This document shows positions 6,824-35,440 of a DNA stretch of 64,000 nucleotides, piece after piece; positions within the stretch are counted from its first letter, which is position 1, and each line of letters starts with the position of its first letter. Where the stretch lies: assembly GCA_947630055.1 (NCBI GenBank), contig CANRGA010000001.1, positions 10,195-74,194 of the forward strand, in the 5' to 3' direction. This DNA comes from an uncultured Bacilli bacterium (GTDB taxonomy: Bacteria > Bacillota_I > Bacilli_A > RF39 > UBA660). The translations under genes were made by a program, and so were the position numbers. Below the pieces are notes generated by a model. It made no database searches and was not told the origin of the DNA. It saw only the letters and a program-made list of their open reading frames with translations.

Positions 6824-7231
6824 ATGAAGGAATCGTATTGGGGATATTGGTTAGTTTTATTAGGTGTATTTGTTGTCGTAATATTGTTATTGATTCAAAA
6901 CTTAACAACAAATAATACAGAAAGCAGTTATTCTATAAGACAAATAAGTGAAGCAGCGATGATTGATGCAGTTGACTATGCATATTATAGAGAATATGGT
7001 GAACTTAAAATAAATAGAGAAAAATTTATTGAAAGTTTTATGAGAAGATTTGCTGAAACAGCTTCATTATCAAACAAATATACTTTAACATTTGCTGGTA
7101 TATATGAAGCACCACCTAAAGTAGGTGTTCAAATAACCAGTAAAACAAATACATATTTTATTGCAAATTCTGCTGAAGAATTTGATATGGAGAATAGAGT
7201 AGAAGCAATATTAGAACAAAGTAATAAATAG
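6824..7231 (+). CDS. small N-terminally membrane-anchored protein, pilus assembly accessory candidate
   Basis: RBS GAAGAAGGGA. Single TM WLVLLGVFVVVILLLI. Operon position between the adhesin-like gene and the CpaB-like gene. Confidence 0.45.
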   Translation: MKESYWGYWLVLLGVFVVVILLLIQNLTTNNTESSYSIRQISEAAMIDAVDYAYYREYGELKINREKFIESFMRRFAETASLSNKYTLTFAGIYEAPPKVGVQITSKTNTYFIANSAEEFDMENRVEAILEQSNK

Positions 7232-8010: not shown

Positions 8011-8033
8011 AAAGGGAAAGGACGGGGCTTTAA

Positions 8034-9125: not shown

Positions 9126-9143
9126 AAAGGGAGGTGCATAATT

Positions 9144-10049: not shown

Positions 10050-10837
10050 TGCAAGTAGAAATAATTATTATTGGTATTCTAATCTTTGTTGTAATGACTT
10101 ATAATGGTCAAGTTAGTATTAAAGATTTAATTAGTGATAACTTTTATTTATTTAGAAAGTTAAAAGAAGACGATTGGGATTTTTATGTTAGTGCAAAATA
10201 TGGAGATAGTGTTTCATCTGATGCAATTTTTATGAAGAGAATTCGAAATGGTTTAATGGTAATTGTAATTAGTTTATTTTTCTTCATAAGACAACTTGAT
10301 GCTCTTTATATATTAATATCTTTTGTTTTAGGTTTCTTAGTATTTAAAATGGACTATATGAATATTAAATCTTATTATAAAACTCATATGTTTAAAATAG
10401 ATAGTATGTTACCTCACTATTTAAAAAGTATTGAAATATTAATTCAACACTATACAGTTCCAGTTGCTATTGGTAAATCAATAATTGATGCACCTGATAT
10501 ATTTAAAGATGGATTACAAGAAATGATTAATGAAATAAATTCAGGTGATGACTCAATTAACCCTTATATGAATTTTGCTAAAAAATATCCGGTAAGAGAT
10601 TCAATGCGTATGATGCGTCTTTTATATCGTTTAAGCTTAGGAAGTCAAGATCGTAAACAAGAACAAATGTTGATGTTTTCAAGAACAATATCTAATTTAC
10701 AACAAAAAGCTAGAGAGACGAAATATAAAAATAGACTTGATAAGATGGAAGGCAAAACAATGAATATGTTAATGTCAACTGGTTTTGGAGTAATGATCTT
10801 ATTAGTCCTAGCCGTATTACAAATGATGGATTTATAA
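10049..10837 (+). CDS. TadC-like inner-membrane platform protein (T2SSF-type)
   Basis: Start overlaps TadB stop. Three hydrophobic blocks with TadC-like spacing. Confidence 0.55.
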   Translation: MQVEIIIIGILIFVVMTYNGQVSIKDLISDNFYLFRKLKEDDWDFYVSAKYGDSVSSDAIFMKRIRNGLMVIVISLFFFIRQLDALYILISFVLGFLVFKMDYMNIKSYYKTHMFKIDSMLPHYLKSIEILIQHYTVPVAIGKSIIDAPDIFKDGLQEMINEINSGDDSINPYMNFAKKYPVRDSMRMMRLLYRLSLGSQDRKQEQMLMFSRTISNLQQKARETKYKNRLDKMEGKTMNMLMSTGFGVMILLVLAVLQMMDL

Positions 10838-12557: not shown

Positions 12558-13544
12558 GTGAATATGAATGTAATAGTATCAAATAAATATCAATCATTAC
12601 TAGGAACACTAGAAATAGATGTAATTAAAACAATTAATGGTGAATTTACGGTTCAAGATTTGGTAAATCAATTTAATAATTTTTTCTTTAATAAAATGAT
12701 AATTGATATAACTGCTATTAAAAATTATGAAAATATTAATATAATGCGGGAATTATCATTGAATTTTGAAATGGATAAAATAATTATCTTGTTAGATGAT
12801 TCACCAAGTGTAAATTCAGCAAATTATTTATCTCAATTGGTATCTTTTGGTATTTATAATTTTACAAGAAGTGTAGATGCTATTCCATTTTTAATAGATA
12901 ATCCAAATTCTTATAAAGATGTAGCGGCATATCAAAATTTAAATCCAGATACTAATTTGGACAGTAAAAAAGTTAAAGAAATTGCTCCTGTTAAAATGGA
13001 GCAAAGAGTAATTGGCTTTAAGAATGTTACTGAACATGCAGGAGCTACTACTTTAATATATATGTTAAAAAAGCATTTACAAAGTGAATATAAAGTTAAA
13101 GCAATTGAAGTAAATGCAACCGATTTTGAAAATTTTAATGATAAATCACTTGAAAGTGCTGATTTTATGAATATTTCAATAAAATTAGCAAATAATAGTG
13201 ATGCCGATGTTATTTTAGTGGATTTAAATGATGGTCCAGAAACAATTTGTACCGAAATTATTTATCTAATTGAACCAGGTATTTTAAAATTAAATAAATT
13301 AATTAGGAATGATCGAAAAATATTTGAAAAATTAAAGAATAAAAAAATCGTTTTAAATAGAAGTGTTTTAAACGATAAAGATGTTCATGATTTTGAATAT
13401 GAAAGTGGTAGTAAAATATTCTTTAATATTCCAAGTTTAGATGAAAAATTAGATAATAATAAAAAAATAATTGAATTTTTAATTGCTTTAGGATTTTCTA
13501 GATTAGATGTAGAAAATAATAATAAAAAATTTGGTATTTTATAA
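12558..13544 (+). CDS. TadZ/CpaE-like protein (receiver-like N-domain plus degenerate ParA/MinD-like domain)
   Basis: Deviant P-loop region VIGFKNVTEHAGATTLIYMLKK. N-terminal alpha/beta region. Last gene of operon. Confidence 0.35.
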   Translation: MNMNVIVSNKYQSLLGTLEIDVIKTINGEFTVQDLVNQFNNFFFNKMIIDITAIKNYENINIMRELSLNFEMDKIIILLDDSPSVNSANYLSQLVSFGIYNFTRSVDAIPFLIDNPNSYKDVAAYQNLNPDTNLDSKKVKEIAPVKMEQRVIGFKNVTEHAGATTLIYMLKKHLQSEYKVKAIEVNATDFENFNDKSLESADFMNISIKLANNSDADVILVDLNDGPETICTEIIYLIEPGILKLNKLIRNDRKIFEKLKNKKIVLNRSVLNDKDVHDFEYESGSKIFFNIPSLDEKLDNNKKIIEFLIALGFSRLDVENNNKKFGIL

Positions 13545-13558: not shown

Positions 13559-13583
13559 TCTCTAGTAATAGAGATTTTTTTTA
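13559..13583 (+). terminator. rho-independent terminator ending the pilus operon
   Basis: TCTCTAGTAATAGAGA hairpin followed by TTTTTTTTT. Confidence 0.6.
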
Positions 13584-13603
13584 TTGTATAGTAAAGTTTA
13601 AAA

Positions 13604-13620
13604 GTTCAACAGTGTTGAAC
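13604..13620. promoter_or_regulatory. 7-bp inverted repeat GTTCAAC-AG-TGTTGAAC upstream of the giant protease gene, candidate operator
   Basis: Read directly. Lies about 140 nt upstream of a TGGTATTAT extended -10 element. Confidence 0.3.
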
Positions 13621-13800
13621 GAATTAAGGTGGTCTCATTATTTAAAATTAATAAAGATAGATAATGAAATTAAAAGAAGACAAAAATTTCATTAAAGATC
13701 CATATGTATTAGAATTTTTAGATATAAAAGAAAAATACTGGATAATTTTGCTATATTGTGGTATTATATGAAACAATTGATTTTGAAGGGGTGTTTTGTT

Positions 13801-16800
13801 ATGAAATACGCAAAATATAAGTATATATTTATGTTATTTTTAGTGATCATTTTTTTACCATTTAAAGTTATGGCCAAAAATATTAATTTAGATATTGATA
13901 AATATGATTTAACTATTGGTGATGAAATAACAGTAAGTGTTAGTTTACCAGATGAAATAAAAGCTTATGCAGTTATGGCAACTTTTACTTATGATGAAAA
14001 TGTTTTTACTAAAATAGATATTGATGATTTTTCTATTTTAAATAAAAATTTAAATATTTCTTATAATGATAATACTAAAAAATTTGGTTTAATAAACGAA
14101 ACAGGTAAATTAGATAATGAATTATTTCAAGTTCATTTAAAAGTAAAGGAAAATGCTAATGTTGGCGATACTAATATAGCTTTAACAAATATAGTAGTGT
14201 CTGATGGAACAAAGAAAGAAGAATATAATAAGACTATTAAAACTATTTTAGTTACAAGAGATGCTAAGCCTGGTGAAGAAATACCTATTAATAAATCTAA
14301 TAAAGTAGAAGAAAGTAAAGAAATTGAAACTAAAGTATTTACATCTAAGCCGTTTATGATTACTTTAGGTATAAGTGCTATTGTAATTTTAGGATTAGTG
14401 ATTTATATTACCTTATTTAAAAAAGATAAAAAGACTTTAAAAAATATTCTTGTTGGTTGTGCAACTATTTTAACCATTTCTTTTGTAGTTATATATATAT
14501 TTAATATTAATAAAAGAGATGTTAATAATGATGGAGTTAAAGATTACAATGATGCAAAAGAAATACTTAAATATCTTTTAGATATTACAGGTACTGAAGA
14601 AATTGATAATAATAAAAATACTTCTAATAAAAAACCAAGTATTAACCCAAATAATAAATATGATGTTAATAATGATGGTAAAATTGATATAAATGATGTT
14701 GGTAATAATACGGAAAATGTTACTGAAAATACAAAAGTGATTTTAAAAGAAAAGAACGATAATAAAGATTTTTATGTCAAAAAAGGTGATATTACTTTAA
14801 AATTTACTGCAGAAATTACACCTAAAAATGTAACAATAACTAAAGTAAAAATTAATAATAAATATTATGATGTTATCAATAATAATGGCGAATATTCTGT
14901 TACTATAGAGTCTAATAAAGCAGGTAAATACGAATTTGCTATTACTAGTGTTATTTTATCTAATGGCAAAGAAATAAATGTTAAACTTAAATTTGTAAGA
15001 GAAGTTTTAAAAGTTACTCCTTATGTTAATAAATTTAATTTAAATGATGAAAAAGGTTCTTTAAGTTTTGAACTAGTAGATCCAGAAGATGCTTTTATTA
15101 GTGGTGAAGTTACTGTTTATGATGGTGAAAAAGTAATTGTCAAAGAAAATGTTAAAAGTACAACTAAAATTAATGATATTCCTATTGATGAAGATAAAAT
15201 TTATCGTTTAGAAGTAATGGGAGAATATGATTTAGATAGCAATAAAAATGATGATAATAATCATTTTACTAATCAAACTATGTTTAACCATTCCTTTATG
15301 ATAGGGGGAGATTATAACTTCACTTTAACTGATGTAGGAATTACAGATGCGATTAAAAAGGGTGAAAAGCCAGTTATAAGTTTTAAAAGTACAAATACTA
15401 AAGGAGTGACTGTTGAAAATGCTTCTTTAACTATTGGAAATAAAACTAATAATTATGTCATTAGTAAAATAGATGGTGATAATTATGAAGTTATTTTAGA
15501 AGATGCTGATACATCTGTAGGTAAACATAAAGTAAATTTAGATAGTGTTAGATTAAAATCTTTAAAGACGTTTAATAATAAAAAAGACTATGATGCTAAT
15601 ACACTAACTTATACTGTGTTAAAAGATTCGCCAAAAGTAACTAGTTTGAATGTAGAAGAAGATTCCGAAAATAAAAGTATTATTGCTAAATTTAGTATAA
15701 ATGATGAAAGTAGTGCTATTAGTAGTTTAAAAGTTGTTTTAGTAGATTCAACTGGAGCAGTTATTGCATCACAAATTTTAACAAGAGAAGAATACTTAGA
15801 AAAAGGTGAAGTATCACTATCTTATGATGGTAGTACAGATGGTAATTATAAAGTTAAAATTTTAGCTGATTATGCCCTAAGTGATCAATATAACTATACT
15901 GATAAACCAATTGGGGAAGAAGCAATTACAGTTAATACTGGTGTATATATTGAAGCTATTGAATATGTTGAAACAAAACAAAATAATCGTGTTATTGATA
16001 GTGGTAAATTTGCTAGTAAAGGCCAAAAAATGTATCGAATGAACTTTATCGTTCATACCAAAGGAATAAGATCATATTCACGTCTTTCATCTATTACGAT
16101 TAATGGTTTAAATTATATTGCTAATGGTGGAGCATCTGCCATAGAAAATGCTGAAGGTGAATATAGATATACCTCAACTGTTGCTATTACTGTGCCAAAA
16201 GAAGCAGGTATTATGACAATTACTGCTAATCGTGTTCAATTAGAAGTTAATAGTTATAATTACAAGGTTAATCAATTTTATCATGTTCCAGATGTATCTA
16301 AAGAATATGAAGTATTAAAAGATATTCCAAGTATTGCTAATTTAAAAATACAAAAAGAAGATTATGAAGCAAAAGAAGTTACTTTTAATTTTGATGTTAT
16401 CGACAAAGAAGATTCATTTATAAGTGGTAAATTAGAATTAAATGGTAAGAGTGAAGAGATAAATAAAGGTAATAATACAGTTACTTTTACTGGTATTGAA
16501 ACTGATAAAGTTCATGATTTGATTTTTAAAGCTGATTATAAATTAAGTACTGGTGAAATTGAAGATCCAATTAATCAAACAGAAAAAAGTAATGCGGAAA
16601 TATATAAAGTTAAATATGGTTTATATAAAGAAGATACTTATAATGATATTAAGATAAGTGAAATTACTCCAGTTAGTGAAAAGAACAATAAATATTTTGA
16701 AAAAAACGAAGATATTAAATTAAATCTTATTATTGTAGGCATTCCCGAGTATTTAAATGTTTATCCAGAAAGAGTTATTATTAATGATAAAGAATATGAT

Positions 16801-19800
16801 TCAAAAGCTTTAATGACTTGTCATGAAGTAACTTTAAAGGGTTATACTTCATCTGGTGAAAAAGAACTTAAAGTTAGTGCCATCATTTTAAATAATGGTA
16901 AAGTTATAACTTTAGATAAAGAAGTAACTATTGAAGTATTAAAAGATATACCAAAAATAACTGATTATAAATATTCTATTAATGATAATAGTATTAAAAT
17001 TACTTTAGCTAATAAAGATAGTGATTCATCTTTAGATGGTGATTTACAAGTTAAAGTTACTGATGATACAGGGAAAGAACTTTATAATAGTAAATATCAA
17101 GAGACAATTGAGTTTAAAAAGAATAAAGATGCTTTAAGATATTATATTTCTGTTATAGGTAGTTATGATAGAGATATTGATAAACAAGAAGATAGTGAAA
17201 ACTATAATAAAGATATTAAATTATTAGATGAAACTATTTCTCTAGATAAAAATAATATTGAATTAAAAGATATTACTTATATAACCTTATATAAAGAAGA
17301 AAATGATAAAATATTAGAGATTAGAGAAATAACTAAAGAAGAATTAGAACAAAATATTGAAAAATATTTTGTCGAAGTTAATATGGAAAATATGCCTTCT
17401 GTTTATGCTAAACTTAAAAAAGTTACTATTGAAGATAATCATTTAATGCTAATTTTAGATTATGAATATGTAACTAAAGAAGAAAGTAAATCTAAAGAAA
17501 TCAAAGTTGATTATGGGGCTATAATTAATGGTAAAGCAAAAAATGAAACTAATCCATTAAATGAATTTAATATCTTAAAAGAAAGAATTAAAAATAATGA
17601 ACATATCATTTTAACTCATGATTATGATTTAAAAGATATTGAAGTTACTACAAGTTATTATTTTGAAAACTTTAGTGGTTCAATTGATGGTAATGGTCAT
17701 AAAATAACTAATTTAAGTAAACAATTATTTAATGAACTTAGTAATGCGGAAATTAAAAATTTAATAGTAGAAAATGCTAATATAAGTGGTGCTGTTCGTG
17801 GTATTTTAGCCGATAAAGGTACAGATGTAGTAATTAATAATGTTCATTTATATAATGGTAATATTAAAGCTAATCTTGTTACTAATGGAACTGGTATTAT
17901 GTTTGGTGAAACAAGAAATAGTATAGAAATATCAAATTCATCAATTGTAAATAGTTCAGTTAGTGGTGGCAAAAGAACTGGTGGCTTTATTGGTCAAGCT
18001 TATAATAAAACAACGATTACTAATAGTTATATCAATGATAGTAGTGTAACTGGTAATAATGACGCTATTGGTGGCATTATTGGCGAAGTAAGTAGTGCTA
18101 ATAATGTTTCTATGACTAATTGTTATAGTAAAGTTACTATGGATGGTGGTGCTGGTAATGCTAAAGCTGGTATTTTAGGCTATACTAATAGTAGCGGTGC
18201 AACTAAATTAATTAATAGTTTAAGTATGTCTCAAGGAAATAGTGGTACGAGAGTATATGGTAATGGTATCTCTGCTACTAATGTCTATGAGTTAAAAGAA
18301 TCTACTATGAGATCGCAAGCTGGTGGCCAAATTAAAGAAATAACTGGTAATGATATTAATAAAGAATTCTTTATTAATTCATTAAATTGGGATGAAGAAG
18401 TGTGGAATTTAGATAATGTATCAGCTGATGTACCTCCTATTTTAAAAGGCGAAAAATTTGAGCCTGTGAAAAGCCCAATAGAAGCTGAAGATGGTTATGA
18501 TCCAAATAAAAGAATACTTTATAATAACTTAATGAAATTAATGCCTTTCTATGATAGTGAAAAAATAGTTAGAACTGGTATGCATATTACTGATAATAAT
18601 TTACTTAATAAAGAAATTCAACATATTGTGCCAATTGATAATAAAGGAAGTATTGTTACATATTTAACAAGTGATAATTTAAAGAAAATAAGTAAGATAA
18701 AAGTAGTATATAAAACGAAAGAAAAAGTTACTTATGATGTAAAATTTGATAATACTTATGATATGGTAGCAAGTTATCGTATACCTGATTTAAATATCGA
18801 TTATACTTATAACCATTATATTATTGATGCTAACTCTCAAGTAGTAAATAATATAACTAATTATTTAAAAGATTTAAGTTATACAAATAATTTAGATACT
18901 TTAACTGCTACTAAAGATAGTAGAATATTAAGAGATTTCTATAATGATGTTACTAGTAAAGAATTAAAAGAATTTACTTTAAAATATTTATCTAATAGTA
19001 ATTATACTAATACCACTAACAATGATAGTATTAATAGTCATTTGGAAAGTGAAATTAAAAAAGATAAAAAAATTGAAAAAGTATTATATATGTATAATTA
19101 CTTTAGAAGATTCTATGATGTTGAAATAGATGGTATGAAATTATATGATTTTATGCTATTTAACATGAATGGTTTTGATGAATCATTAACAAGCCAAATG
19201 ATAGCCCGTATTTATTTACAAGATGGTAATAACTTTAACACTGGTTCAACTGGTACTAAATATCGTGATTTACTAGGGGGTTATACTAAACTTAATACTA
19301 TTGCCAAATTCATCGAATATATGGTAACTGAATTTAGTAATGATAATATGAATGATTGGGTAAGGAAAGAATTTGCAGGTTACTTAGTAGAAATTCCAGT
19401 TAAAGGTCATGAAAAAGACATTCAATATACTTTATGGGATCACTTTAGTAATGAAGATGCTGTTTATAATAATCCACATAGAGCATATGATATGATGTTA
19501 CCAATTTTAACATTGCCAAAGAATGCAGCTTATATAATTTCTACGCCAGTTCAATTTATCATCGGGGCGCAAAGAAGTTATATTGAAGATCCAGAAGATC
19601 CTACTTCTCAAAGTATTTTCCAAAGAAGAGTTAAAAGCTACGCTAAGAGAATGGAAACTTATTTTGATACAGCTTATAAAATTTTAGGCGATGCAAAATA
19701 CTTTAATGATATTCATACTTTCCAACTTGATAAAAGATTTGCTTATGATGAAAATGGCGCAATGGTATATCAACAAGCCTATGTTACAGAGGAGCCATTC

Positions 19801-21174
19801 CATAAGAACTTTAATGAAGTAACTGGTCGTTGGCAAACAAGTGATGGTAATGCTGCTGTTGCTTGGGGAGATCGTATTGACTGGAGTGCAGAAGGTTTAA
19901 TGGATGGTAATATTGATCCAGATTTAGTTAGTGTTTTAAATAAACAAATTCAAGAATATACTTATCATACCTTTACGCATGAAACAGCCCATAATATTGA
20001 TGCTAGACTATTCTTAAAAAATAATGGTAGAAGATTTGATGCTGGAGGAGAAGATTATGCTGATAGTAATCTAATGCAATCTTTTGGACCAAATGATATA
20101 GTTATGAATTTATCAACTTATCGTAATGGTGAAAAAATTGCTTCAAATTATACTCCAGATCGAATTAACTCACCAGAAAAAATTCAAAGTTACTATGATA
20201 AAGTATTCCAAACTATCTATGTAATGGATTATATTGAAGCAGAGGCTTTCTTACAACTTCCTAAAGAAGTTCAAGCAAATTTAGCAGTTCAAGTATCTTA
20301 TCCAAATGAAAATTTACAATTTGAAACTTTAGAAGATGGTAAAACTTTCACTGGACCAACTTATAAAGAAGATCCTTATGCTATTTTTAGAGCCCGTCAA
20401 ACATCAAGATTTACTCAATTAAGTGAAATACCAGATGTATTTAATCAAATGAAACTTACATCAATTAATGATTTAATTGATAATCATATTATGATTTATC
20501 CGGGTATTTATAAAGTAGGATCTAGAGGGTCTAACTCTTATGGCGGTGAAGGCATTGGTCATGTTCACTGGTATCAACCATGGAATCCAGAAGGAAGACC
20601 TGATTCATACGCAATTAAATGGATTGCTTATGAAATGCTTGGTTTAAAAGGATATGATGAAGGTTATATTGAGTATTATAGTAATATAAATTCAACACCA
20701 AGAGAAATTTATAAAAACTTATCTAAGCCTAAAGAAGGTAAATCAACCGTTAATTATAAAACTGATTCTATGGCATTAAGTAGAATAACTGAAGGTAGAT
20801 TTGATGATTTTGATAAGTATAAGAAATATCGTTTTGCAGAAACTAAAGCAAAATTAGATAAACTTAATGCCAAAGTTAATGTAAAACAATATGTTCAAAA
20901 ATTATATGATGCTTTACTTGAAGATAATGAATATTCTAAAACAAGATTAGAATCATTACTTCAAGCATATAAAACTGATGAAAAAGGTTGCTTAGGTAGT
21001 TATTGGTGTGCCAGAGGAATATCTGGTGAAGTTAGAGGTTTCTTAAAAAGTACTGCTGTAAGACAAGAAATATATTATACTTTAAAAGATTTAACAAATG
21101 ATTTTGAAGGTGAAATATTTGAAAAAACTACTCAACAAAATGTCAGCGATTTAACTGTTAATAAAGGTGAATAA
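13801..21174 (+). CDS. giant surface zinc metalloprotease, M26 (ZmpB/IgA1-protease)-like: cohesin-like module, two TM segments, dockerin duplication, Ig-like repeats, GLUG-like repeats, HExxH domain
   Basis: Likely start ATG 13801 (RBS AAGGGG). Signal MKYAKYKYIFMLFLVIIFLPFKVMA. Cohesin-like LTIGDEITVSVSLPDEIKAYAVMATFTYDENVF. TMs FMITLGISAIVILGLVIYITLF and LVGCATILTISFVVIYIF. Dockerin segments DVNNDGVKDYND and DVNNDGKIDIND. GLUG-like GGFIGQA, IGGIIGEV, AGILGYT. Zinc motif FTHETAHNID. Confidence 0.7.
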   Translation: MKYAKYKYIFMLFLVIIFLPFKVMAKNINLDIDKYDLTIGDEITVSVSLPDEIKAYAVMATFTYDENVFTKIDIDDFSILNKNLNISYNDNTKKFGLINETGKLDNELFQVHLKVKENANVGDTNIALTNIVVSDGTKKEEYNKTIKTILVTRDAKPGEEIPINKSNKVEESKEIETKVFTSKPFMITLGISAIVILGLVIYITLFKKDKKTLKNILVGCATILTISFVVIYIFNINKRDVNNDGVKDYNDAKEILKYLLDITGTEEIDNNKNTSNKKPSINPNNKYDVNNDGKIDINDVGNNTENVTENTKVILKEKNDNKDFYVKKGDITLKFTAEITPKNVTITKVKINNKYYDVINNNGEYSVTIESNKAGKYEFAITSVILSNGKEINVKLKFVREVLKVTPYVNKFNLNDEKGSLSFELVDPEDAFISGEVTVYDGEKVIVKENVKSTTKINDIPIDEDKIYRLEVMGEYDLDSNKNDDNNHFTNQTMFNHSFMIGGDYNFTLTDVGITDAIKKGEKPVISFKSTNTKGVTVENASLTIGNKTNNYVISKIDGDNYEVILEDADTSVGKHKVNLDSVRLKSLKTFNNKKDYDANTLTYTVLKDSPKVTSLNVEEDSENKSIIAKFSINDESSAISSLKVVLVDSTGAVIASQILTREEYLEKGEVSLSYDGSTDGNYKVKILADYALSDQYNYTDKPIGEEAITVNTGVYIEAIEYVETKQNNRVIDSGKFASKGQKMYRMNFIVHTKGIRSYSRLSSITINGLNYIANGGASAIENAEGEYRYTSTVAITVPKEAGIMTITANRVQLEVNSYNYKVNQFYHVPDVSKEYEVLKDIPSIANLKIQKEDYEAKEVTFNFDVIDKEDSFISGKLELNGKSEEINKGNNTVTFTGIETDKVHDLIFKADYKLSTGEIEDPINQTEKSNAEIYKVKYGLYKEDTYNDIKISEITPVSEKNNKYFEKNEDIKLNLIIVGIPEYLNVYPERVIINDKEYDSKALMTCHEVTLKGYTSSGEKELKVSAIILNNGKVITLDKEVTIEVLKDIPKITDYKYSINDNSIKITLANKDSDSSLDGDLQVKVTDDTGKELYNSKYQETIEFKKNKDALRYYISVIGSYDRDIDKQEDSENYNKDIKLLDETISLDKNNIELKDITYITLYKEENDKILEIREITKEELEQNIEKYFVEVNMENMPSVYAKLKKVTIEDNHLMLILDYEYVTKEESKSKEIKVDYGAIINGKAKNETNPLNEFNILKERIKNNEHIILTHDYDLKDIEVTTSYYFENFSGSIDGNGHKITNLSKQLFNELSNAEIKNLIVENANISGAVRGILADKGTDVVINNVHLYNGNIKANLVTNGTGIMFGETRNSIEISNSSIVNSSVSGGKRTGGFIGQAYNKTTITNSYINDSSVTGNNDAIGGIIGEVSSANNVSMTNCYSKVTMDGGAGNAKAGILGYTNSSGATKLINSLSMSQGNSGTRVYGNGISATNVYELKESTMRSQAGGQIKEITGNDINKEFFINSLNWDEEVWNLDNVSADVPPILKGEKFEPVKSPIEAEDGYDPNKRILYNNLMKLMPFYDSEKIVRTGMHITDNNLLNKEIQHIVPIDNKGSIVTYLTSDNLKKISKIKVVYKTKEKVTYDVKFDNTYDMVASYRIPDLNIDYTYNHYIIDANSQVVNNITNYLKDLSYTNNLDTLTATKDSRILRDFYNDVTSKELKEFTLKYLSNSNYTNTTNNDSINSHLESEIKKDKKIEKVLYMYNYFRRFYDVEIDGMKLYDFMLFNMNGFDESLTSQMIARIYLQDGNNFNTGSTGTKYRDLLGGYTKLNTIAKFIEYMVTEFSNDNMNDWVRKEFAGYLVEIPVKGHEKDIQYTLWDHFSNEDAVYNNPHRAYDMMLPILTLPKNAAYIISTPVQFIIGAQRSYIEDPEDPTSQSIFQRRVKSYAKRMETYFDTAYKILGDAKYFNDIHTFQLDKRFAYDENGAMVYQQAYVTEEPFHKNFNEVTGRWQTSDGNAAVAWGDRIDWSAEGLMDGNIDPDLVSVLNKQIQEYTYHTFTHETAHNIDARLFLKNNGRRFDAGGEDYADSNLMQSFGPNDIVMNLSTYRNGEKIASNYTPDRINSPEKIQSYYDKVFQTIYVMDYIEAEAFLQLPKEVQANLAVQVSYPNENLQFETLEDGKTFTGPTYKEDPYAIFRARQTSRFTQLSEIPDVFNQMKLTSINDLIDNHIMIYPGIYKVGSRGSNSYGGEGIGHVHWYQPWNPEGRPDSYAIKWIAYEMLGLKGYDEGYIEYYSNINSTPREIYKNLSKPKEGKSTVNYKTDSMALSRITEGRFDDFDKYKKYRFAETKAKLDKLNAKVNVKQYVQKLYDALLEDNEYSKTRLESLLQAYKTDEKGCLGSYWCARGISGEVRGFLKSTAVRQEIYYTLKDLTNDFEGEIFEKTTQQNVSDLTVNKGE

Positions 21175-21353: not shown

Positions 21354-22313
21354 ATGAAAGGCAAAATTATGACAGAAGAAAAAATATACAACGAAATAGT
21401 TGAGTTAATTGAAGAAAGAGAAGTAAAAAAGTTTGTTAGAGAATTTAAAGAAAATTCAGAAACATTAAAAACTAATTGGGAGATAGGTAGATTACTAGTT
21501 AATGCTCAAGGTGGAGAAGCTAGAGCAAAATATGGTGAAAATCTAATTAAGAAATGGGGCGAAAAATTATCTTTAGAATATGGTAAGAATTATAATAAAA
21601 GAAATCTTATGTATTATAGACAATTTTACTTAACATTTCAAAATGTGAACACAGTGTGTTCACAATTTAGTTGGTCAATATGTAGATGCTTATTATCAAT
21701 AAAAAATGAGAATGAGAGAAACTATTATATAAATCAAGTAATACTTAATAATTTATCTGTTAGAGAGTTAAGAAATGAAATAAAAAGTAAAGCCTTTGAT
21801 AGATTATCTTATGCAGATAAAAATAACATTAAGTTAATAACAGAGAATAATAATTCAATAACATTAAGTGATATGATAAAAGATCCGATAATTATTAAAA
21901 CTGATAAAGATACAACTAATTTAACTGAACAAAAATTACATGAAATATTAATTGAGTTAGTTGAAAATCATTATATGGAATTAGGAGCAGGTTTTGCTTT
22001 AATAGGTCATGAATATAAATGCAAAATAGATAATAGAACTTATAAAATAGATTTATTATTCTTTAATTATAAAATAAATGCCTTTGTTGTAGTAGAAGTG
22101 AAGATAAAAGAATATAATCCAAAAGATAGAGGGCAAATAGAATTATATATGGATTATGTTGATAAAAATATAAAAGAAAATTATCATAATAAAACAGAAG
22201 GTATATTAGTAGTTAGAGAAAAGAATAAACTAGTTACTAAATATATTTCTAATAATAATTTATATATTACTACTTATTTATTAGAAAATAAAAAAGTACA
22301 AAATGGCAAATAA
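21354..22313 (+). CDS. DUF1016/YhcG-like PD-(D/E)xK nuclease family protein (intact, 319 aa)
   Basis: ELGAGFALIGHEYKCKIDNRTYKIDLLFFNYKINAFVVVEVKIKE core. N-domain homologous to copies at 89..2044. Confidence 0.75.
   Translation: MKGKIMTEEKIYNEIVELIEEREVKKFVREFKENSETLKTNWEIGRLLVNAQGGEARAKYGENLIKKWGEKLSLEYGKNYNKRNLMYYRQFYLTFQNVNTVCSQFSWSICRCLLSIKNENERNYYINQVILNNLSVRELRNEIKSKAFDRLSYADKNNIKLITENNNSITLSDMIKDPIIIKTDKDTTNLTEQKLHEILIELVENHYMELGAGFALIGHEYKCKIDNRTYKIDLLFFNYKINAFVVVEVKIKEYNPKDRGQIELYMDYVDKNIKENYHNKTEGILVVREKNKLVTKYISNNNLYITTYLLENKKVQNGK
21644..21664. repeat. perfect 10-bp inverted repeat, 1-nt spacer (TGTGAACACA g TGTGTTCACA) at the homologous position of the plus-strand DUF1016 copy
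   Basis: Read directly. Encodes NVNTVCSQFSW. Extended arms are imperfect (one bulged A). Confidence 0.9.
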
Positions 22314-22397: not shown

Positions 22398-22763
22398 ATG
22401 TTATTAGGAGCTACATTTTGTACTGATACTGCAAATATATGGCATTTAGTTGGTATGGTAGTTTATATTTTAAAAATTGTTATTCCACTTGTATTAATCA
22501 TTTTAGGTATGCTTGATTTAGGGAAAGCTGTTGTTTCAAGTGATGAAAAAGCTATTAATAAAGCAGTTGGTACATTAATAAAAAGATTTATTGCAGCAGT
22601 TGTAGTATTCTTTGTTCCTACTATAATTAATGGAATTTTTGGAGTAATTGGTGTAATTGGTGGAAGTTCAAAAGATGATTACCAAGTATGCGTTAGATGT
22701 GTTACTCAAACTTGTGAAGCAGAAGCAGAAGCAGCAAGACAAAGCATCGGCTTTACTCAATAA
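22398..22763 (+). CDS. VirB2/TrbC-like two-TM protein, minimal member of a four-paralog family
   Basis: LVLIILGMLDLGKAVVSSDEKAINKAVGTLIKRFIAAVVVFFVP shared with the C-termini of 22873, 24153 and 25714. Ends with CVRCVTQTCEAEAEAARQ. Confidence 0.45.
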   Translation: MLLGATFCTDTANIWHLVGMVVYILKIVIPLVLIILGMLDLGKAVVSSDEKAINKAVGTLIKRFIAAVVVFFVPTIINGIFGVIGVIGGSSKDDYQVCVRCVTQTCEAEAEAARQSIGFTQ

Positions 22764-22788
22764 TTTTTAGTAATTAATGTGTATAGAA

Positions 22789-22826
22789 AATAGTGTCAAC
22801 AAAGTTAACACTATTTTTTTGTTTTA
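22789..22826 (+). terminator. rho-independent terminator
   Basis: AATAGTGT..ACACTATT hairpin followed by TTTTTGTTTT. Confidence 0.6.
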
Positions 22827-22847
22827 ATTTAATATTTACAATAACCA

Positions 22848-22856
22848 TGTTATAAT
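22848..22856 (+). promoter_or_regulatory. TG-extended -10 (TGTTATAAT) in a block duplicated at 24128..24136
   Basis: ATAACCATGTTATAATTTAG versus ATAACCATGATATAATTTAG. Confidence 0.45.
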
Positions 22857-22872
22857 TTAGGTGGGTGAGTCT

Positions 22873-23970
22873 ATGAAAAAAAATAAAGCAATAGCTATAT
22901 TTTGTTTGTTATTTATGATTTTAATAGTTTTTGCAATATGCTCATCTGTATATTTAAGTAAAAGAGAAAATAATAAAGATATAATCATTTTAGCAGCAAA
23001 TAAAAATTATGGTTTAACTAAGGAACAAGTAGAACAAGAATTAAATAAAATGAAATCTACTCCAACTTATGATGAATTAGTATCATTAGCTAAAAGAAAA
23101 TATGGAATGAGTGAAGATGTTTTTCAAGTGGTTTTTGGTTGGGCAATTGGTGAAGGCTATGATAGTCATGATCATTATCTAGGTTACTTATGCGATAATG
23201 TTGGAATTAATCATTATATGGGGTATGGAAAAACTACTGCTAGTTCCTTAGCTGCATCAATAGCCGGAAGAGATAGTAGTGGCTATTATTCAACAAGTAG
23301 GATGCAAGGAAGATCTATTTCTGCTAAAAATAATCCTGGAAGCTATGTAGCAGCTTATAAAGGAATGTATTTAGCTTTGAAATATCCTGAAGAGAATGCA
23401 CATGATTGTGATGGTGTATCAAACTATAGTGGATATGGAGGTCAAAAAATTTATTCAGCAGTAGTTGGAAGATATACAATAAATGTATGGTCTGTTTGGT
23501 ATGATGGCATAAAGCATTGGAACTCTGATGGTAAATATTCTGATAGTAAAGGTGGAATAAAAGGTGCCAAAAAAGAAGAAGTGCTTGTAACATTAAAAGA
23601 CAAAGATCCACGTATAGATTATGCTGATTTATGTAAATCAAAAGGTTTTAGAATGGGTTCTAAAATAGCAGGTATAGTTATATTGGTAGTAAAATGGTTA
23701 ACGCCAATGATATTAATAATACTTGGGATGACAGATTTTACTAAAGCAATGGTTTCAAATGAACAAGATTCATTAGGAAAGGCGACAAAAACATTTATAA
23801 TAAGAATGATGATTGCAATAATGCTACCATTTATTCCAGGACTTATGTATTATTTAGTTGATTATTTTATTGGCGATTTAAAGGATGAAGCCGGGGAACT
23901 TGTATCATGTACTGAATGTCTTAAAGATCCTTTTAGTTGTGTAGTTGAATTGTATGACAATAATAATTAA
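22873..23970 (+). CDS. secreted protein with large variable ectodomain fused to the conserved VirB2/TrbC-like two-TM C-terminal module
   Basis: ATG 22873 after AGGTGGGTGAG. Signal MKKNKAIAIFCLLFMILIVFA. C-terminal LTPMILIILGMTDFTKAMVSNEQDSLGKATKTFIIRMMIAIMLPFIPGLMYYLVDYFIGD...CTECLKDPFSC. Confidence 0.55.
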   Translation: MKKNKAIAIFCLLFMILIVFAICSSVYLSKRENNKDIIILAANKNYGLTKEQVEQELNKMKSTPTYDELVSLAKRKYGMSEDVFQVVFGWAIGEGYDSHDHYLGYLCDNVGINHYMGYGKTTASSLAASIAGRDSSGYYSTSRMQGRSISAKNNPGSYVAAYKGMYLALKYPEENAHDCDGVSNYSGYGGQKIYSAVVGRYTINVWSVWYDGIKHWNSDGKYSDSKGGIKGAKKEEVLVTLKDKDPRIDYADLCKSKGFRMGSKIAGIVILVVKWLTPMILIILGMTDFTKAMVSNEQDSLGKATKTFIIRMMIAIMLPFIPGLMYYLVDYFIGDLKDEAGELVSCTECLKDPFSCVVELYDNNN

Positions 23971-23989
23971 AAAAGTTTGAGGTGATAAA

Positions 23990-24070
23990 ATGGAAAAAAA
24001 TAAAGCGATAGCTATATTTTGTTTATTATTTATTATATTAACTATTTTTGCAACAATTTCTATTATATAA
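23990..24070 (+). pseudogene. 26-codon remnant duplicating the signal-peptide start of 22873 (MEKNKAIAIFCLLFIILTIFATISII)
   Basis: Near-identical to first 20 codons of 22873, own RBS GAGGTG, then stop. Confidence 0.45.
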
Positions 24071-24127
24071 TAAGTGTTAAATGCCTTTACAGTTTTATTT
24101 AATTTGTTTTATTATTTAAAATAACCA

Positions 24128-24136
24128 TGATATAAT
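24128..24136 (+). promoter_or_regulatory. duplicated TG-extended -10 (TGATATAAT)
   Basis: Second copy of the promoter block. 16 nt upstream of RBS TAGGTG. Confidence 0.45.
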
Positions 24137-24152
24137 TTAGTTAGGTGTTAAT

Positions 24153-24875
24153 ATGAAAAAAAATTGGAAATTATTAGTATTTTGTTTGATTATTATGTTT
24201 TTTATTAATTGTAATATTGCTATTGCGGATTCATCTTGTGATAAATATGCCACACATAATGAAGAAATATGTAATTATGAATCATCAACTTCAGGAGAAG
24301 CAGTATGTAGATGTCTTTATGATTTGAATAAAACTAATGAAACTACTTGTGATAGAGGCTATACAAATAATGTATTAAACATATGTGAGGCTTCATTTCC
24401 AACAACATATGATTTTTCAAAAACGCCGGTAGAAAATAATCCATCTAATACAAATAATACTGAGAGCGATGATACTATTAAAGGATCTAGTGATAGTGCT
24501 GGAAATCCTACAATAGGCGATAGTGGTCCAAGATTGGAATATAATAATTTATGTGAATCAGAAGGATTTAAAACAGGATCTAAAATAGCAGGTATAGTTA
24601 TATTGGTAGCAAAATGGTTAACACCACTTGCATTAATGATATTAGGAATGATAGATTTTTTCAAGGCAGTTATATCGAGTAATGAAAAAGCACTAAGTGA
24701 CGCTACGACTACTTTTATAAAAAGAATAGTAATAGCAATTATTGTTCCATTTGTACCTGGTTTGTTATTTTATTTAGTTGATTTTTTTATCGGTGACGAA
24801 ATTGCAGATACTAAAGTTGAATTTGGCTCATGTACGGAATGCTTAAAGGATCCTTTAAATTGTACAATTAAATAA
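24153..24875 (+). CDS. secreted Cys-rich variable ectodomain fused to VirB2/TrbC-like two-TM module (paralog)
   Basis: Signal MKKNWKLLVFCLIIMFFINCNIAIA. C-terminal LTPLALMILGMIDFFKAVISSNEKALSDATTTFIKRIVIAIIVPFVPGLLFYLVDFFIGD...CTECLKDPLNC. Confidence 0.55.
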   Translation: MKKNWKLLVFCLIIMFFINCNIAIADSSCDKYATHNEEICNYESSTSGEAVCRCLYDLNKTNETTCDRGYTNNVLNICEASFPTTYDFSKTPVENNPSNTNNTESDDTIKGSSDSAGNPTIGDSGPRLEYNNLCESEGFKTGSKIAGIVILVAKWLTPLALMILGMIDFFKAVISSNEKALSDATTTFIKRIVIAIIVPFVPGLLFYLVDFFIGDEIADTKVEFGSCTECLKDPLNCTIK

Positions 24876-24890
24876 TAATAGAGTTGTTTA

Positions 24891-25619
24891 ATGAAAAATT
24901 TTTTACTTAATAGTAATGAAAAATATATTATAAAATTATTTGGTTTTTGGCACATATTTTTAATGCTATTTATATTATGTGTAGTTTATTTTATTGTAAA
25001 AAATAAGAGTAAATTAATTAATTTGAATAGTAAAAAAAAGAAAAAAATAAGAATAGTATTTACGATTATTTTGATTTTGAATTTGTTTATAAGAAGAGGA
25101 GCATTTTTAATTTACAATGTATATGATTTCCACTTTCATTTAGATATAAATATTTGTAATTTTTTAAATATTATTTATATTATATATGGTTTAACGGGAA
25201 ATTCAAAAATATATCCTATTTGTTTTTATTTGAGTTTTGTTGGACCTTTTATAGCTATTCTATTTCCCTGTATTAATTTTAGTGTTTTAAATTATTCATT
25301 TTATTCATTTTTAATTACTCATCATTTTGTTTTTATTTTTAATTTCATTTTTCTTTGTTTTGAAAATTACAAATATATTAGCAAAGATTTTAAAAACATA
25401 TTTCTATTTTTAACAATCTATTTTTTTATTGTTTATTGTTTTAATTATATTTTTAATACTTCATATTTATTACCATTTGAATTTGTCAACAATGATTTAT
25501 TAACAAATGGATTTATTAATTATATATATCATTCTAGAATATTAATTTATTTCATATATTTTTCATTTATTTTTAGTTTATTATTTTTAAGTAGATCAAT
25601 TTTAAAAAAAATAAATTAA
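24891..25619 (+). CDS. polytopic membrane protein of unknown function (very hydrophobic, F/I/L/N-rich)
   Basis: 242-aa ORF in 25 percent GC DNA, multiple predicted TM helices. Weak RBS. Could be a TcpD-like accessory. Confidence 0.35.
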   Translation: MKNFLLNSNEKYIIKLFGFWHIFLMLFILCVVYFIVKNKSKLINLNSKKKKKIRIVFTIILILNLFIRRGAFLIYNVYDFHFHLDINICNFLNIIYIIYGLTGNSKIYPICFYLSFVGPFIAILFPCINFSVLNYSFYSFLITHHFVFIFNFIFLCFENYKYISKDFKNIFLFLTIYFFIVYCFNYIFNTSYLLPFEFVNNDLLTNGFINYIYHSRILIYFIYFSFIFSLLFLSRSILKKIN

Positions 25620-25713
25620 TAATATATAAATTATGTAATAAAAATTAGTAGTATTTTCAAAAAATATATGCTAAAATAAAAATATAAATAATAAAGATGT
25701 TAGGAAGATTTCT

Positions 25714-26574: not shown

Positions 26575-26588
26575 GGTGAGAGGTTTAA

Positions 26589-28862: not shown

Positions 28863-28884
28863 TATATGAAGGAGGAATAGAAAG

Positions 28885-31527: not shown

Positions 31528-31551
31528 AATAAAATAATTAGATGTAAAAAA

Positions 31552-34504: not shown

Positions 34505-34514
34505 GAGGAATATT

Positions 34515-35438: not shown

Positions 35439-35440
35439 AT

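Follow-up and report, generated by a model that had tools for sequence, protein, structure and literature searches.

In Clostridium perfringens, cohesins and dockerins are carried by different secreted enzymes, which they assemble into hetero-complexes. Both modules occur in one enzyme in Ruminococcus bromii, where the dockerin of the amylosome protein Amy4 recognises the cohesin of Amy4 itself, and this self-binding has been proposed to cause aggregation (PMC4611034). The R. bromii protein Sca2 has been said to resemble ScaE of R. flavefaciens (PMC4611034). For the M26 zinc metalloproteases of streptococci, namely the IgA1 protease (IgA1P) and the Zmp proteins, the surface-attachment model comprises S1, an LPXTG motif, two transmembrane (TM) segments and S2, a second site for signal peptidase (PMC3518915); cell retention by this atypical N-terminal anchor has been modelled, with its mechanism unexplained so far. 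A gut-protease review of 2026 continues to present the M26 family as almost only respiratory-streptococcal (PMC13271334), and our literature search for a link between cohesins or dockerins and M26 or IgA1 proteases returned nothing relevant.

The 64,000-nt stretch of DNA analysed here (the window), which derives from a low-GC rabbit-gut Bacilli metagenome-assembled genome (MAG), encodes a protein in which these elements meet. Its parts follow one another in the order signal peptide, cohesin, conserved linker, TM hairpin, dockerin, four Ig/FN3-like repeats and M26 catalytic region (Table 1). The frame of ~2.4 kaa announced in a preliminary description of this DNA is real, with 2457 residues and a stop codon ending at 21174, and its product is 100% identical to a database protein (P0001). 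We read this product as a protease that is anchored by its TM hairpin and in which the cohesin clasps the dockerin of the same chain, a fusion of two formerly separate units whose cut sites were lost in the subfamily to which the window protein belongs, and we put the probability of this reading at roughly 0.55.

Table 1. Coordinates of the protease gene, its protein modules and adjacent sequence elements in the window (aa, residues of the encoded protein).
Feature	Position	Strand	Basis
ORF, cohesin/dockerin-bearing M26 metalloprotease	13801..21174	+	complete, ATG at 13801, 2457 aa + stop
Ribosome-binding site GAAGGGG	13785..13791	+	9 nt 5' of ATG; direct sequence reading
Perfect palindrome GTTCAACA-G-TGTTGAAC	13604..13620	.	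8-nt arms, 100% complementary; 5' of gene
Signal peptide aa 1-25 (n-h-c regions, VMA↓K)	13801..13875	+	hydrophobic peak aa 7-25; AF2 helix aa 3-18
Cohesin module aa 27-150	13879..14250	+	PF00963; AF2 pLDDT ~95; Foldseek 2vo8/2jh2
Conserved ordered linker aa 151-184 (VTRDAKxGExIPxNKENxIxED...FxxKP)	14251..14352	+	family consensus; pLDDT 82-90
TM helix 1 aa 185-206	14353..14418	+	hydropathy; AF2 helix aa 183-206
Basic loop KKDKKTLKN aa 207-215	14419..14445	+	sequence
TM helix 2 aa 216-234, then NINKR	14446..14502	+	hydropathy; AF2 helix aa 211-237
Dockerin aa 238-312	14512..14736	+	Ca loops 14518-14553, 14662-14697; PF00404; AF2 helices aa 249-261, 297-310
Stalk of tandem Ig/FN3-like beta-sandwich domains aa 313-1240	14737..17520	+	sliding-window self-alignment, AF2, Foldseek
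M26 N-terminal region with GLUG-like beta-helix aa ~1242-1520	17524..18360	+	PF05342; alignment to IgA1P N-terminal part
Peptidase_M26_C catalytic region aa 1656-2440	18766..21120	+	PF07580; PDB 7jgj/6xja/6xjb
HETAH zinc-binding/catalytic motif H2060, E2061, H2064	19978..19992	+	aligned to IgA1P HEMTH
E2084, putative third zinc ligand	20050..20052	+	+24 from H2060, cf. IgA1P E1628 / H1604

The assignment to family M26 is carried by the C-terminal half. PF07580 (Peptidase_M26_C) matched with 110.3 bits (gathering score 22, E 1e-31) over profile positions 2-792 of 792, PF05342 (Peptidase_M26_N) reached 35.5 bits against a threshold of 27.7 on a fragment covering aa 1235-1700, and homology to the structures 7jgj, 6xja and 6xjb spanned aa 1151-2441 (E ~1e-43). 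The HETAH sequence that had been picked out as a C-terminal zinc site lies in this M26 context, and the catalytic tetrad is intact, with H2060, E2061, H2064 and E2084 spaced as in the pneumococcal IgA1 protease, where the zinc site is formed by H1604, E1605, H1608 and E1628 (PMC7695701); a glutamate at +24 is found in 114 of the 137 long relatives having an HExxH. M26_N, M26_C and an HExxH+E24 zinc site are thus common to the window protein and the IgA1 protease and its paralogs ZmpB, ZmpC and ZmpD of S. pneumoniae. The NCBIfam models for ZmpA, ZmpB, ZmpC and ZmpD (NF046017/19/21/24) scored 159.6, 124.9, 145.6 and 67.5 bits, respectively, against a cut-off of 3000, and their matches were limited to the C-terminal half (aa ~1020-2441). 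The GLUG-like repeats of the preliminary description fared less well: the match in the window protein is sub-threshold (17.1 versus 20.5 bits), with PF07581 carried by many homologs; in IgA1P, residues 795-1050 form a beta-helix (PMC7695701). Judged from its sequence, the protein is a predicted cell-surface zinc endopeptidase of family M26 and, by analogy, its extracellular substrates would be host glycoproteins such as IgA or mucins.

The repeated Ig-like domains proposed for the region ahead of the M26 part correspond to four repeats of ~200-225 aa with two domains each (about aa 315-1200), which were detected by sliding-window Smith-Waterman alignment (z up to 9) and did not show in a BLASTP self-comparison of the protein. 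AF2 modelled aa 313-760 as all-beta (pLDDT 88.3), and Foldseek matched this model to fibronectin FN3 arrays, ICAM-5, the MG domains of C3 and the adhesin 4p99.

At the N terminus, the expected signal is present, with n-h-c regions and a canonical site at which cleavage is read between MKYAKYKYIFMLFLVIIFLPFKVMA and K; A25 is conserved in at least 90% of the family. The domain that follows had been called cohesin-like and proved to be a cohesin. Scanned alone, aa 1-190 gave a PF00963 match of 35.5 bits for aa 29-145 (gathering threshold 24.1), which Pfam did not list when the full-length protein was scanned, and the AF2 model shows a nine-stranded jelly-roll cohesin fold. The top 21 matches of the AF2 cohesin in a Foldseek search of the PDB were all cohesins. 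The best of them come from glycoside hydrolases of C. perfringens (NanJ GH33, GH84C; 2vo8, 2jh2, 2o4e; TM score 0.76-0.77, E 2e-8 to 5e-8), headed by the non-cellulosomal 2vo8 and 2jh2 (TM score 0.77, E 2e-8; 2.3e-8 for 2vo8). As in that species, the modules sit on what would be a host-directed enzyme and not on a cellulase, but here a single chain carries both, one on either side of a TM hairpin.

The two closely spaced TM segments of the preliminary description are present, and the loop between them is probably cytoplasmic by the positive-inside rule, which would place the N-terminal cohesin and everything after TM2 outside the cell. With its signal peptide, two hydrophobic segments and repeat region, the protein follows the N-terminal plan of the streptococcal IgA1P and Zmp proteases (PMC3518915), so that the proposed likeness to ZmpB/IgA1 topology is correct as far as a signal peptide followed by two TM segments goes, but not for the LPXTG that defines the anchor. 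The window protein has neither an LPXTG nor a G5 domain. Its TM pair is preceded by a cohesin and followed by a dockerin, two modules that the literature cited does not report for the streptococcal proteins. Before TM1, F-T-S-K-P-F stands in place of LPXTG, with the hydrophobic segment and basic loop of the sorting-signal plan present, and a comparison of tail motifs revealed no AXA-type signal-peptidase site after TM2. A search of the window for LPXTG-type C-terminal sorting signals was negative, and the window ORFs scanned with Pfam included no sortase domain.

The dockerin is built around two Ca loops, DVNNDGVKDYND (aa 240-251) and DVNNDGKIDIND (aa 288-299), with Asp or Asn at loop positions 1, 3, 5, 9 and 12 (D240, N242, D244, D248, D251 and D288, N290, D292, D296, D299); D240, D244, G245, D251, D288, N290, D292, G293 and D299 are invariant across 48 diverse relatives. 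The duplication claimed for it is genuine, but the epithet "textbook" fits the two Ca loops alone: PF00404 is borderline (26.3 bits on a fragment and 20.2 on the full-length protein; threshold 22.9), and the loops are 48 aa apart, compared with ~33-36 aa in the shortest homologs and 31-165 aa across the family. The spacing is due to a 15-aa low-complexity insert (aa 265-279) between the two F-hands, which is disordered in the AF2 model (pLDDT <50), and the module is not a compact dockerin of ~60-70 aa with a short inter-repeat linker. This long variable insert and the borderline score, together with the loss of both processing motifs described below, would suit modules that bind nothing and persist as a folded spacer from an ancestral processed form. 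We regard such decay as very improbable, since the Ca-ligand positions of both loops and many core and surface positions of the cohesin are invariant across relatives of 28-49% identity, which argues for continued selection. With cohesin, dockerin and M26_N profiles above threshold on fragments (the dockerin borderline on the full-length protein), M26_C above its threshold, GLUG below, and the HExxH located within the M26 region, the modular composition first described is upheld.

When representative proteins were searched with a profile of the cassette, 1942 passed E≤1e-3 and 75 passed E≤1e-30. Querying a word index of homologs with just aa 1-330 gave no more than 7 fragments, and a contig scan with the single protein found only close relatives, all from rabbit-gut 'Lapin' MAGs. 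The same order of signal peptide, cohesin, TM, TM and dockerin is common to ~95 proteins of 36-89% identity (group 1). A more distant group (27-31% identity; P0093, P0096, P0106 and others) also has both a cohesin and a dockerin above threshold, the latter at 25-49 bits, arranged as signal peptide, cohesin, LPXTG, TM, basic loop, TM with an AXA-like end, dockerin and M26. In these proteins, (L/I/V/F)PxTG immediately precedes TM1, the basic loop follows, and TM2 ends in YAA, VAA or AFA ~8 aa ahead of the dockerin; the slot occupied by the conserved linker in the window protein holds low-complexity sequence and the LPXTG. The dichotomy in motifs is one of tendencies and not a strict rule, with LPXTG in 12 of the 44 distant proteins versus none of the 95 in group 1, and a small-x-small site in 27 of 44 versus 22 of 95. 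The LPXTG and AXA-like motifs of the distant members account for the two TM helices as a sorting signal and an internal signal peptide. The distant-group cassette looks like a fusion between a sortase-anchored cohesin protein and a signal-peptide-dockerin-protease, and it agrees with the streptococcal Zmp model, in which S1, LPXTG, TM, TM and S2 follow one another (PMC3518915). Comparison of the sequences indicates that in the window subfamily the LPXTG and the AXA motif have both disappeared, with both modules still conserved.

Stand-alone counterparts of the first of these units exist. Apart from M26 proteins, the N-terminal module has its nearest relatives in short proteins consisting of a signal peptide, a cohesin, an LPXTG, a TM segment and a basic tail (P0237, P0240, P0223), and genes of this kind adjoin dockerin-bearing genes at three loci (L012, L013, L016). 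At L016 the cassette is split into a cohesin-anchor ORF and a signal-peptide-dockerin ORF that overlap by ATGA, although an assembly error of 1 nt in an A-run could have produced this arrangement. Unlike sortase-anchored single-cohesin proteins of the ScaE type, the window protein joins the anchor in frame with its presumed cargo, and its subfamily no longer has the sortase motif.

In group 1, an N-x-x-K-K/R-D junction is conserved between TM2 and the dockerin, as would be expected if a protease other than signal peptidase I cut the chain there (for example at NINKR↓D) and the released dockerin-protease were held non-covalently by the cohesin. Cleavage would give the clasp a clear purpose, and a cut at S2 is part of the streptococcal and distant-homolog models; the junction, however, has no small residues at -3/-1, in contrast to the canonical VMA↓K site of the signal peptide at the N terminus of the protein, and we consider this hidden processing distinctly unlikely.

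The preliminary description left it open whether the two modules serve self-assembly or docking onto a scaffold. Since both flank the membrane anchor within one chain, self-docking is the probable function, rather than attachment to a separate scaffold, and virtually every relative checked carries both. HMMs specific to the cohesins and dockerins of the family, run over the 64-kb window and 11 related loci, matched only the protease itself; a separate cohesin scaffoldin accompanied by several dockerin enzymes did not turn up there. A cellulosome-like surface complex, in which the cohesin recruits other dockerin enzymes, the dockerin plugs into a separate scaffoldin, or both, would draw on partners of the kind seen in metagenomes (the multi-cohesin proteins P0161, P0188, P0213 and P0260 and the multi-dockerin P0171) and on the example of C. 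perfringens, which assembles different enzymes with cohesins of matching fold. We judge it improbable, given that no partner turned up in the window or in the flanks of the 11 related loci, that the two modules co-occur in one chain and that the gene neighbourhood is not conserved. The self-recognition half of the original proposal is thus favoured by co-occurrence, locus scan, pTM and coevolution, and the scaffold half has no support from the window and 11 loci.

The structural and coevolutionary data point in the same direction. AF2 modelled aa 1-332 with a pLDDT of 86.5 and a pTM of 0.77, a value that would be too high unless cohesin, linker, hairpin and dockerin formed one rigid body; from this pTM alone we infer contact between cohesin and dockerin in the model. 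In a mean-field direct coupling analysis (mfDCA) of the cassette, the top coupling linked N85 of the cohesin to K253 of the dockerin (1.60, z 7.9), exceeding 12 of 12 permutation controls, at an effective depth (Meff) of ~115 and with controls that do not preserve phylogeny. With a second alignment, N85-K253 recurred together with I98-I297, both above every cohesin-Ig1 and cohesin-TM pair. As an implausible TM-Ig1 pair scored 1.19, near the second-best cohesin-dockerin pair, coevolution lends weak support only. Coevolving pairs also connect the linker to the cohesin (147-178, 28-178, 63-172, 125/127-167).

The evidence for a cognate pair applies equally to binding between neighbouring copies, the cohesin of one protease engaging the dockerin of the next to yield dimers or chains on the membrane surface (the self-assembly of the preliminary description), a behaviour for which the self-aggregation of Amy4 offers a precedent (PMC4611034) and which would account for continued selection on a tethered pair. 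Both modules, however, sit on one TM hairpin, so that local concentration should strongly favour binding in cis; the linker is ordered and packed on the cohesin, and a monomer AF2 run already reached the pTM given above, and we hold assembly in trans to be unlikely. Like Amy4, the window protein is one enzyme with both modules, but Amy4 is a secreted amylase for which a TM hairpin between the modules is not described (PMC4611034), and the geometry of the window protease favours an intramolecular clasp. As a more general observation, a covalently tethered pair has no obvious need of a high-affinity clasp, and the modules may serve binding in trans or to heterologous partners.

Under the preferred reading, a cohesin clasping its own dockerin, the protein would be exported by Sec and its N-terminal signal peptide removed, with the two adjacent TM helices retaining the chain in the membrane. 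The dockerin begins 5 residues past TM2, and packing of the conserved linker on the cohesin would draw the latter back to the membrane, where the two modules, as cognate partners, would lock at the membrane-proximal base of the stalk; the ~900-residue Ig/FN3-like stalk would keep the catalytic head off the cell. The arrangement may have arisen by fusion of a unit made of signal peptide, cohesin and cell-wall sorting signal with a second unit made of signal peptide, dockerin and protease. In the distant relatives, sortase and signal peptidase probably cut the precursor so that the cohesin becomes wall-linked and the dockerin-protease free, and the two would re-dock at 1:1 stoichiometry, and in the window subfamily both cut sites would have been lost and the pair kept as an uncleaved clasp. 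Both the binding and the processing steps we infer. More tentatively, and with somewhat less than even confidence, we suggest that the cassette is a self-contained 'cut-and-dock' system of surface display, in which sortase and signal peptidase split a wall-linked socket from a plug-bearing enzyme and the two reassemble 1:1. If so, it would correspond, on the clostridial side, to the LPXTG anchor at the N terminus of streptococcal IgA1/Zmp proteases, long a puzzle, and would explain that anchor mechanistically, and the window subfamily would represent a derived, uncleaved membrane-clasp version.

The proteins constitute a large, uncharacterised family of gut Firmicutes, whose anchoring would fall to a cohesin-dockerin pair. 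Depending on the variant, LPXTG and AXA are present or absent or the cassette is divided between two genes, a natural series by which the anchoring model can be tested directly, and the cassette suggests a compact module for 1:1 surface display. The family would extend cohesin-dockerin biology from carbohydrate degradation to host-directed proteases, and its members are candidates for commensal enzymes that cleave IgA or mucins in the guts of herbivores. Rabbit-gut MAGs contain a diversity of window-subfamily members, and the rabbit has 14-15 subclasses of IgA, whose hinges diverge (PMC6082545, PMC10435986); taken together, these facts permit the speculation that the window-subfamily proteases may be commensal IgA proteases engaged in an arms race with rabbit IgA.

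In the window, the gene lies between Tad-like pilus genes and genes for a type IV secretion system (T4SS; VirB4-like, VirD4, an M23/lysozyme hydrolase and a T4SS pilin), a synteny retained at two related loci (L003 and L005), as would befit an adhesin or protease of the surrounding conjugative element with a role in mating-pair formation. More distant homologs, however, have no T4SS close by and reside amid housekeeping genes or genes for other surface proteins, and most relatives lack the association, which makes such a role hardly credible; cargo or adhesin of a conjugative element was accordingly downgraded as a candidate, the T4SS/Tad synteny being confined to relatives of 84-92% identity. 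A Pfam scan of eight flanking ORFs at E≤1 yielded nothing useful.

The palindrome that had been reported upstream of the gene (13604-13620, GTTCAACAGTGTTGAAC) is exact and occurs only once in the window, where chance would give 0.04 copies. It is missing from all related loci compared, and a conserved operator at this position was ruled out for want of such conservation. The promoter placed beside it did not withstand comparison with shuffled sequence, which contained 5.6±2.3 sigma-70-like matches versus 6 in the native DNA, the level of chance. A terminator scan found nothing that satisfied its rule; TCTCTAGTAATAGAGA with the T-run 3' of the upstream gene resembles a weak AT-rich hairpin.

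The preliminary description placed an M26-like protease gene at 13801-21174 in this ~25% GC window. These coordinates are correct, because the ribosome-binding site GAAGGGG lies 9 nt 5' of the ATG at 13801 and the 2457-aa product matches database protein P0001 at 100% identity; the gene is one long plus-strand ORF, whose first in-frame start after the preceding stop is a TTG at 13756. Residues 1-25 form a signal peptide (c-region VMA/K, with A25 almost invariant across the family), followed by a cohesin (aa 29-145; Pfam Cohesin, 35.5 bits against 24.1 when the fragment is scanned alone, a match missing from the full-length scan), two hydrophobic helices (aa 185-206 and 216-234) joined by the basic loop KKDKKTLKN and, five residues further, a dockerin (Dockerin_1, threshold 22.9 bits: 26.3 for the fragment, 20.2 for the full-length protein). 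The N-terminal modules previously proposed are thus all present, and both calcium loops (DVNNDGVKDYND, aa 240-251; DVNNDGKIDIND, aa 288-299) follow the canonical pattern of Asp/Asn at positions 1, 3, 5, 9 and 12, most of these residues being invariant in the family. The dockerin is less of a textbook case in that its repeats lie 48 aa apart, owing to a low-complexity insert; relatives show spacings of 31 to 165 aa. Given an alignment of 48 sequences, AlphaFold2 modelled aa 1-332 (pLDDT 86.5, pTM 0.77) with the dockerin insert (aa 265-279) as the sole disordered stretch within the cassette. The top PDB matches of the model were the Clostridium perfringens non-cellulosomal cohesins NanJ (2vo8) and GH84C (2jh2) (TM 0.77, E 2e-8), with cellulosomal cohesins ranking next.

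Downstream of this cassette, sliding-window self-alignment revealed four ~200-225-aa repeats in the region from aa ~315 to ~1200, and the AlphaFold2 model of aa 313-760 is all-beta (pLDDT 88.3), resembling FN3, Ig and MG domain arrays and a bacterial adhesin, so that "repeated Ig-like domains" is a fair description of the stalk. For the GLUG-like repeats also proposed, the Pfam Glug motif scored below threshold (17.1 bits against 20.5). In the catalytic half, Pfam Peptidase_M26_C is covered in full (aa 1656-2440, 110 bits against 22) and Peptidase_M26_N is matched at aa ~1242-1349 (35.5 bits against 27.7), whereas the NCBIfam ZmpA/B/C/D models match the C-terminal half only, at 67-160 bits against cut-offs of 3000. 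Residues 1151-2441 align to the pneumococcal IgA1 protease (7jgj, 6xjb, 6xja; E ~1e-43, phmmer against PDB sequences), which supports the suggested C-terminal zinc site: HETAH (aa 2060-2064) falls on HEMTH, and E2084 follows H2060 by 24 residues, exactly as E1628 follows H1604 in the zinc site of the IgA1 protease (PMC7695701). Glu occupies the +24 position in 114 of the 137 long relatives with HExxH. On these grounds, the protein is by sequence an M26 member with an intact predicted active site and is not orthologous to any of the named streptococcal Zmp proteins. By family analogy alone, IgA or mucin-type glycoproteins are candidate substrates.

The full-length search yielded 147 relatives, ~90 of them co-linear at 36-89% identity, and many carry precomputed Pfam cohesin and/or dockerin annotations. 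By motif and hydropathy scan, the order of parts is the same in essentially all of them: the signal peptide, a ~150-aa module, TM segments at ~185 and ~215, and two DxNxDG motifs, the first at ~240. The cassette profile matched 1942 of 1.84 billion representative proteins at E<=1e-3 (75 at E<=1e-30), and in every full-length match combining a complete cassette with HExxH, that motif lies near the C-terminus. The nearest genomes are MAGs labelled 'uncultured Bacilli bacterium' with names of the form Lapin-xxx, which we take to be rabbit-gut samples. Relatives P0004-P0008, P0092, P0097-P0101, P0153 and P0156 spanned ~2370 to 5721 aa, apparently reflecting differing numbers of Ig-like repeats. 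Related modules also occur in a multi-dockerin protein (P0171, at least seven dockerin-like modules) and in multi-cohesin proteins (P0161, P0188, P0213 and P0260).

The most likely interpretation is that of a hairpin-anchored surface M26 protease with a cognate cohesin-dockerin pair forming a cis clasp at the stalk base: the two TM segments would hold the enzyme at the cell surface, and the cohesin would clasp its own dockerin. Among the relatives scanned, cohesin and dockerin strictly co-occur in one chain. In mean-field DCA of 131 cassettes (Meff 118), the top pair overall was N85 (cohesin)-K253 (dockerin), scoring 1.60 (z 7.9) against a maximum of 1.32 in 12 row-permutation controls; further inter-module pairs cluster on cohesin positions 85/87/94/96/98/99 and, in the dockerin, on a single face of helix 1 (253/256/257/260) and on 296/297. 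A second alignment that also took in the first Ig domain again had N85-K253 (1.31) and I98-I297 (1.20) at the head of the cohesin-dockerin block, above all cohesin-Ig1 (maximum 0.91) and cohesin-TM (maximum 0.81) pairs, but 1.19 was scored by a TM-Ig1 pair that is physically implausible, so the DCA is suggestive only. A pTM of 0.77 over 332 residues, only 38% of them cohesin, would imply one rigid frame for cohesin, linker, hairpin and dockerin. The linker (aa 151-184) is ordered in the model and coupled to the cohesin (147-178, 28-178, 63-172, 125/127-167), which would place the cohesin at the membrane next to the dockerin, a predicted geometry that favours cis binding. A precedent for the proposed self-recognition is Ruminococcus bromii Amy4, whose dockerin binds its own cohesin (PMC4611034). 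Assembly in trans, with the cohesin of one molecule on the dockerin of another, would draw on the same cognate recognition and is a possible, if less favoured, alternative given that geometry. Of the two options raised earlier, self-assembly or scaffold docking, the co-occurrence, couplings and pTM agree with self-recognition; family-specific HMMs detected no second cohesin or dockerin ORF in the 64-kb window or 11 related loci, and the gene neighbourhood is not conserved, so there is no linked scaffoldin gene; docking to other partners is therefore unlikely. That both modules are vestigial is quite improbable in view of the invariant calcium loops, even with the Dockerin_1 score below threshold on the full length.

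The origin of such a clasp is suggested by comparison of two subfamilies. Group 1 (n = 95, window protein included) has F-(S/T)-x-K-P-I-I before TM1 and N-x-x-K-K ahead of the dockerin. The distant group (n = 44, 27-31% identity), mostly of Lachnospiraceae type and including a Mediterraneibacter protein named by NCBI ZmpA/ZmpB/ZmpC family metallo-endopeptidase-related protein, has both cohesin and dockerin above threshold, a low-complexity spacer after the cohesin, (L/I/V/F)PxTG directly before TM1 (12/44) or a TG(D) remnant (20/44), a basic loop after TM1, and YAA, VAA or AFA at the TM2 end, ~8 residues before the dockerin (27/44). In a cell-wall sorting signal, LPXTG stands ahead of a hydrophobic segment with a tail of basic residues; in a signal peptide, an AXA site is preceded by a hydrophobic core and, before that, a basic n-region. 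Because of these distant-group motifs, the hairpin can be understood as a junction at which the sorting signal of an anchor protein with a cohesin meets the signal peptide of a dockerin-bearing enzyme. The same logic underlies the published streptococcal Zmp model, which has S1, LPXTG, a pair of TM segments and S2, a second site for signal peptidase (PMC3518915). The window form would be derived from, or sister to, a form cut by sortase and signal peptidase into wall-linked cohesin and dockerin-protease and then re-docked. In group 1, LPXTG is found in none of the 95 members and a small-x-small site near the TM2 end in only 22. Cryptic cleavage in this group as well is doubtful.

Unfused counterparts exist. 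Among the best non-M26 matches of the cassette profile are short signal peptide-cohesin-LPXTG-TM-basic-tail proteins; two of them, P0240 and P0237, end at true stop codons and are each encoded directly downstream of a gene with a C-terminal dockerin. Such two-gene modules (L012 1-1845; L013 1-1351), a C-terminal-dockerin gene followed by a stand-alone cohesin gene, suggest that gut Firmicutes commonly encode minimal cohesin-dockerin display pairs; the L012 dockerin gene is a probable papain-like peptidase fragment, judging by eye from its GWDDNY and NSWG motifs rather than from an HMM. On metagenome scaffold L016 (389-4926), the cassette is divided between two ORFs with an ATGA overlap at an A-run: signal peptide-cohesin-LPQTG...NPQTG-TM-KKIKR*, and M-IIFLIIGAISLQTVGTVAAA-...-dockerin-Ig, starting with a signal peptide with VAAA. 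A third ORF, on the same N-containing contig, encodes Ig repeats, M26_N and GLUG. Since one added A in the adjacent A-run would fuse the first two ORFs, the split may either be real or have arisen in assembly.

M26, cohesin, dockerin, sortase signals and the presence of cohesin and dockerin in one enzyme are already known. In the literature searched, we found no report that connects M26, Zmp or IgA1 proteases with a cohesin or a dockerin, and a 2026 review assigns M26 to respiratory pathogens (PMC13271334); the arrangement, and its message on Zmp anchoring, appears undescribed.

Features surrounding the protease gene in the window
Feature	Position	Strand	Remarks
YhcG/DUF1016 PDDEXK-nuclease gene	89-1264	-	
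1274-aa protein	2983-6807	+	signal-peptide-like N-terminus; no Pfam match at E<=1
DUF5411 gene	6824-7231		next after 2983-6807
RcpC/CpaB-like gene	7243		upstream, Tad/Flp-like
T2SSE/CpaF-like ATPase	8034		upstream, Tad/Flp-like
Two ORFs	9144 and 10049		upstream, without Pfam matches
YhcG/DUF1016 PDDEXK-nuclease gene	21354-22313	+	
T4SS pilin-like gene	22398		downstream
VirB4/TraG-P-loop ATPase	29740		downstream
950-aa wall hydrolase	31652		downstream; M23 peptidase, phage lysozyme, SpoIID
VirD4/TraG coupling protein	36417		downstream
tRNA-Glu(CTC), single	50502-50578	+	adjoins BipA/TypA gene
BipA/TypA GTPase gene	50634-52442	-	
IS605-family OrfB/TnpB gene	59721-60905	+	HTH_OrfB_IS605, OrfB_IS605, Cas12f1-like TNB domain

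The protease gene looks to lie inside a Gram-positive conjugative element (7243-10837 and 22398-38636), of which the 1274-aa protein may be an uncharacterised surface component. This location amid Tad and T4SS genes could hint at a conjugation role for the protease, which is very unlikely because those flanks are limited to relatives of 84-92% identity, synteny being shared only with the closest loci, L003 and L005. The nuclease gene immediately 3' of the protease is absent from the 92%-identical L003 and therefore represents a recent insertion or deletion. Of the upstream elements proposed, the 13604-13620 palindrome is perfect and single-copy in the window but not conserved in related loci, and the promoter is unsupported, sigma-70-like matches occurring at chance level (6 versus 5.6±2.3 in shuffled sequence). 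Just past the end of the preceding ORF (12558-13544), TCTCTAGTAATAGAGA and the T-run behind it (13559-13585) look like a weak AT-rich terminator hairpin, which does not reach the minimum of three G-C pairs set by the terminator scan. No TnpA was noticed near the OrfB/TnpB gene. The tRNA-Glu(CTC) and BipA/TypA genes could delimit the element on its chromosomal side.
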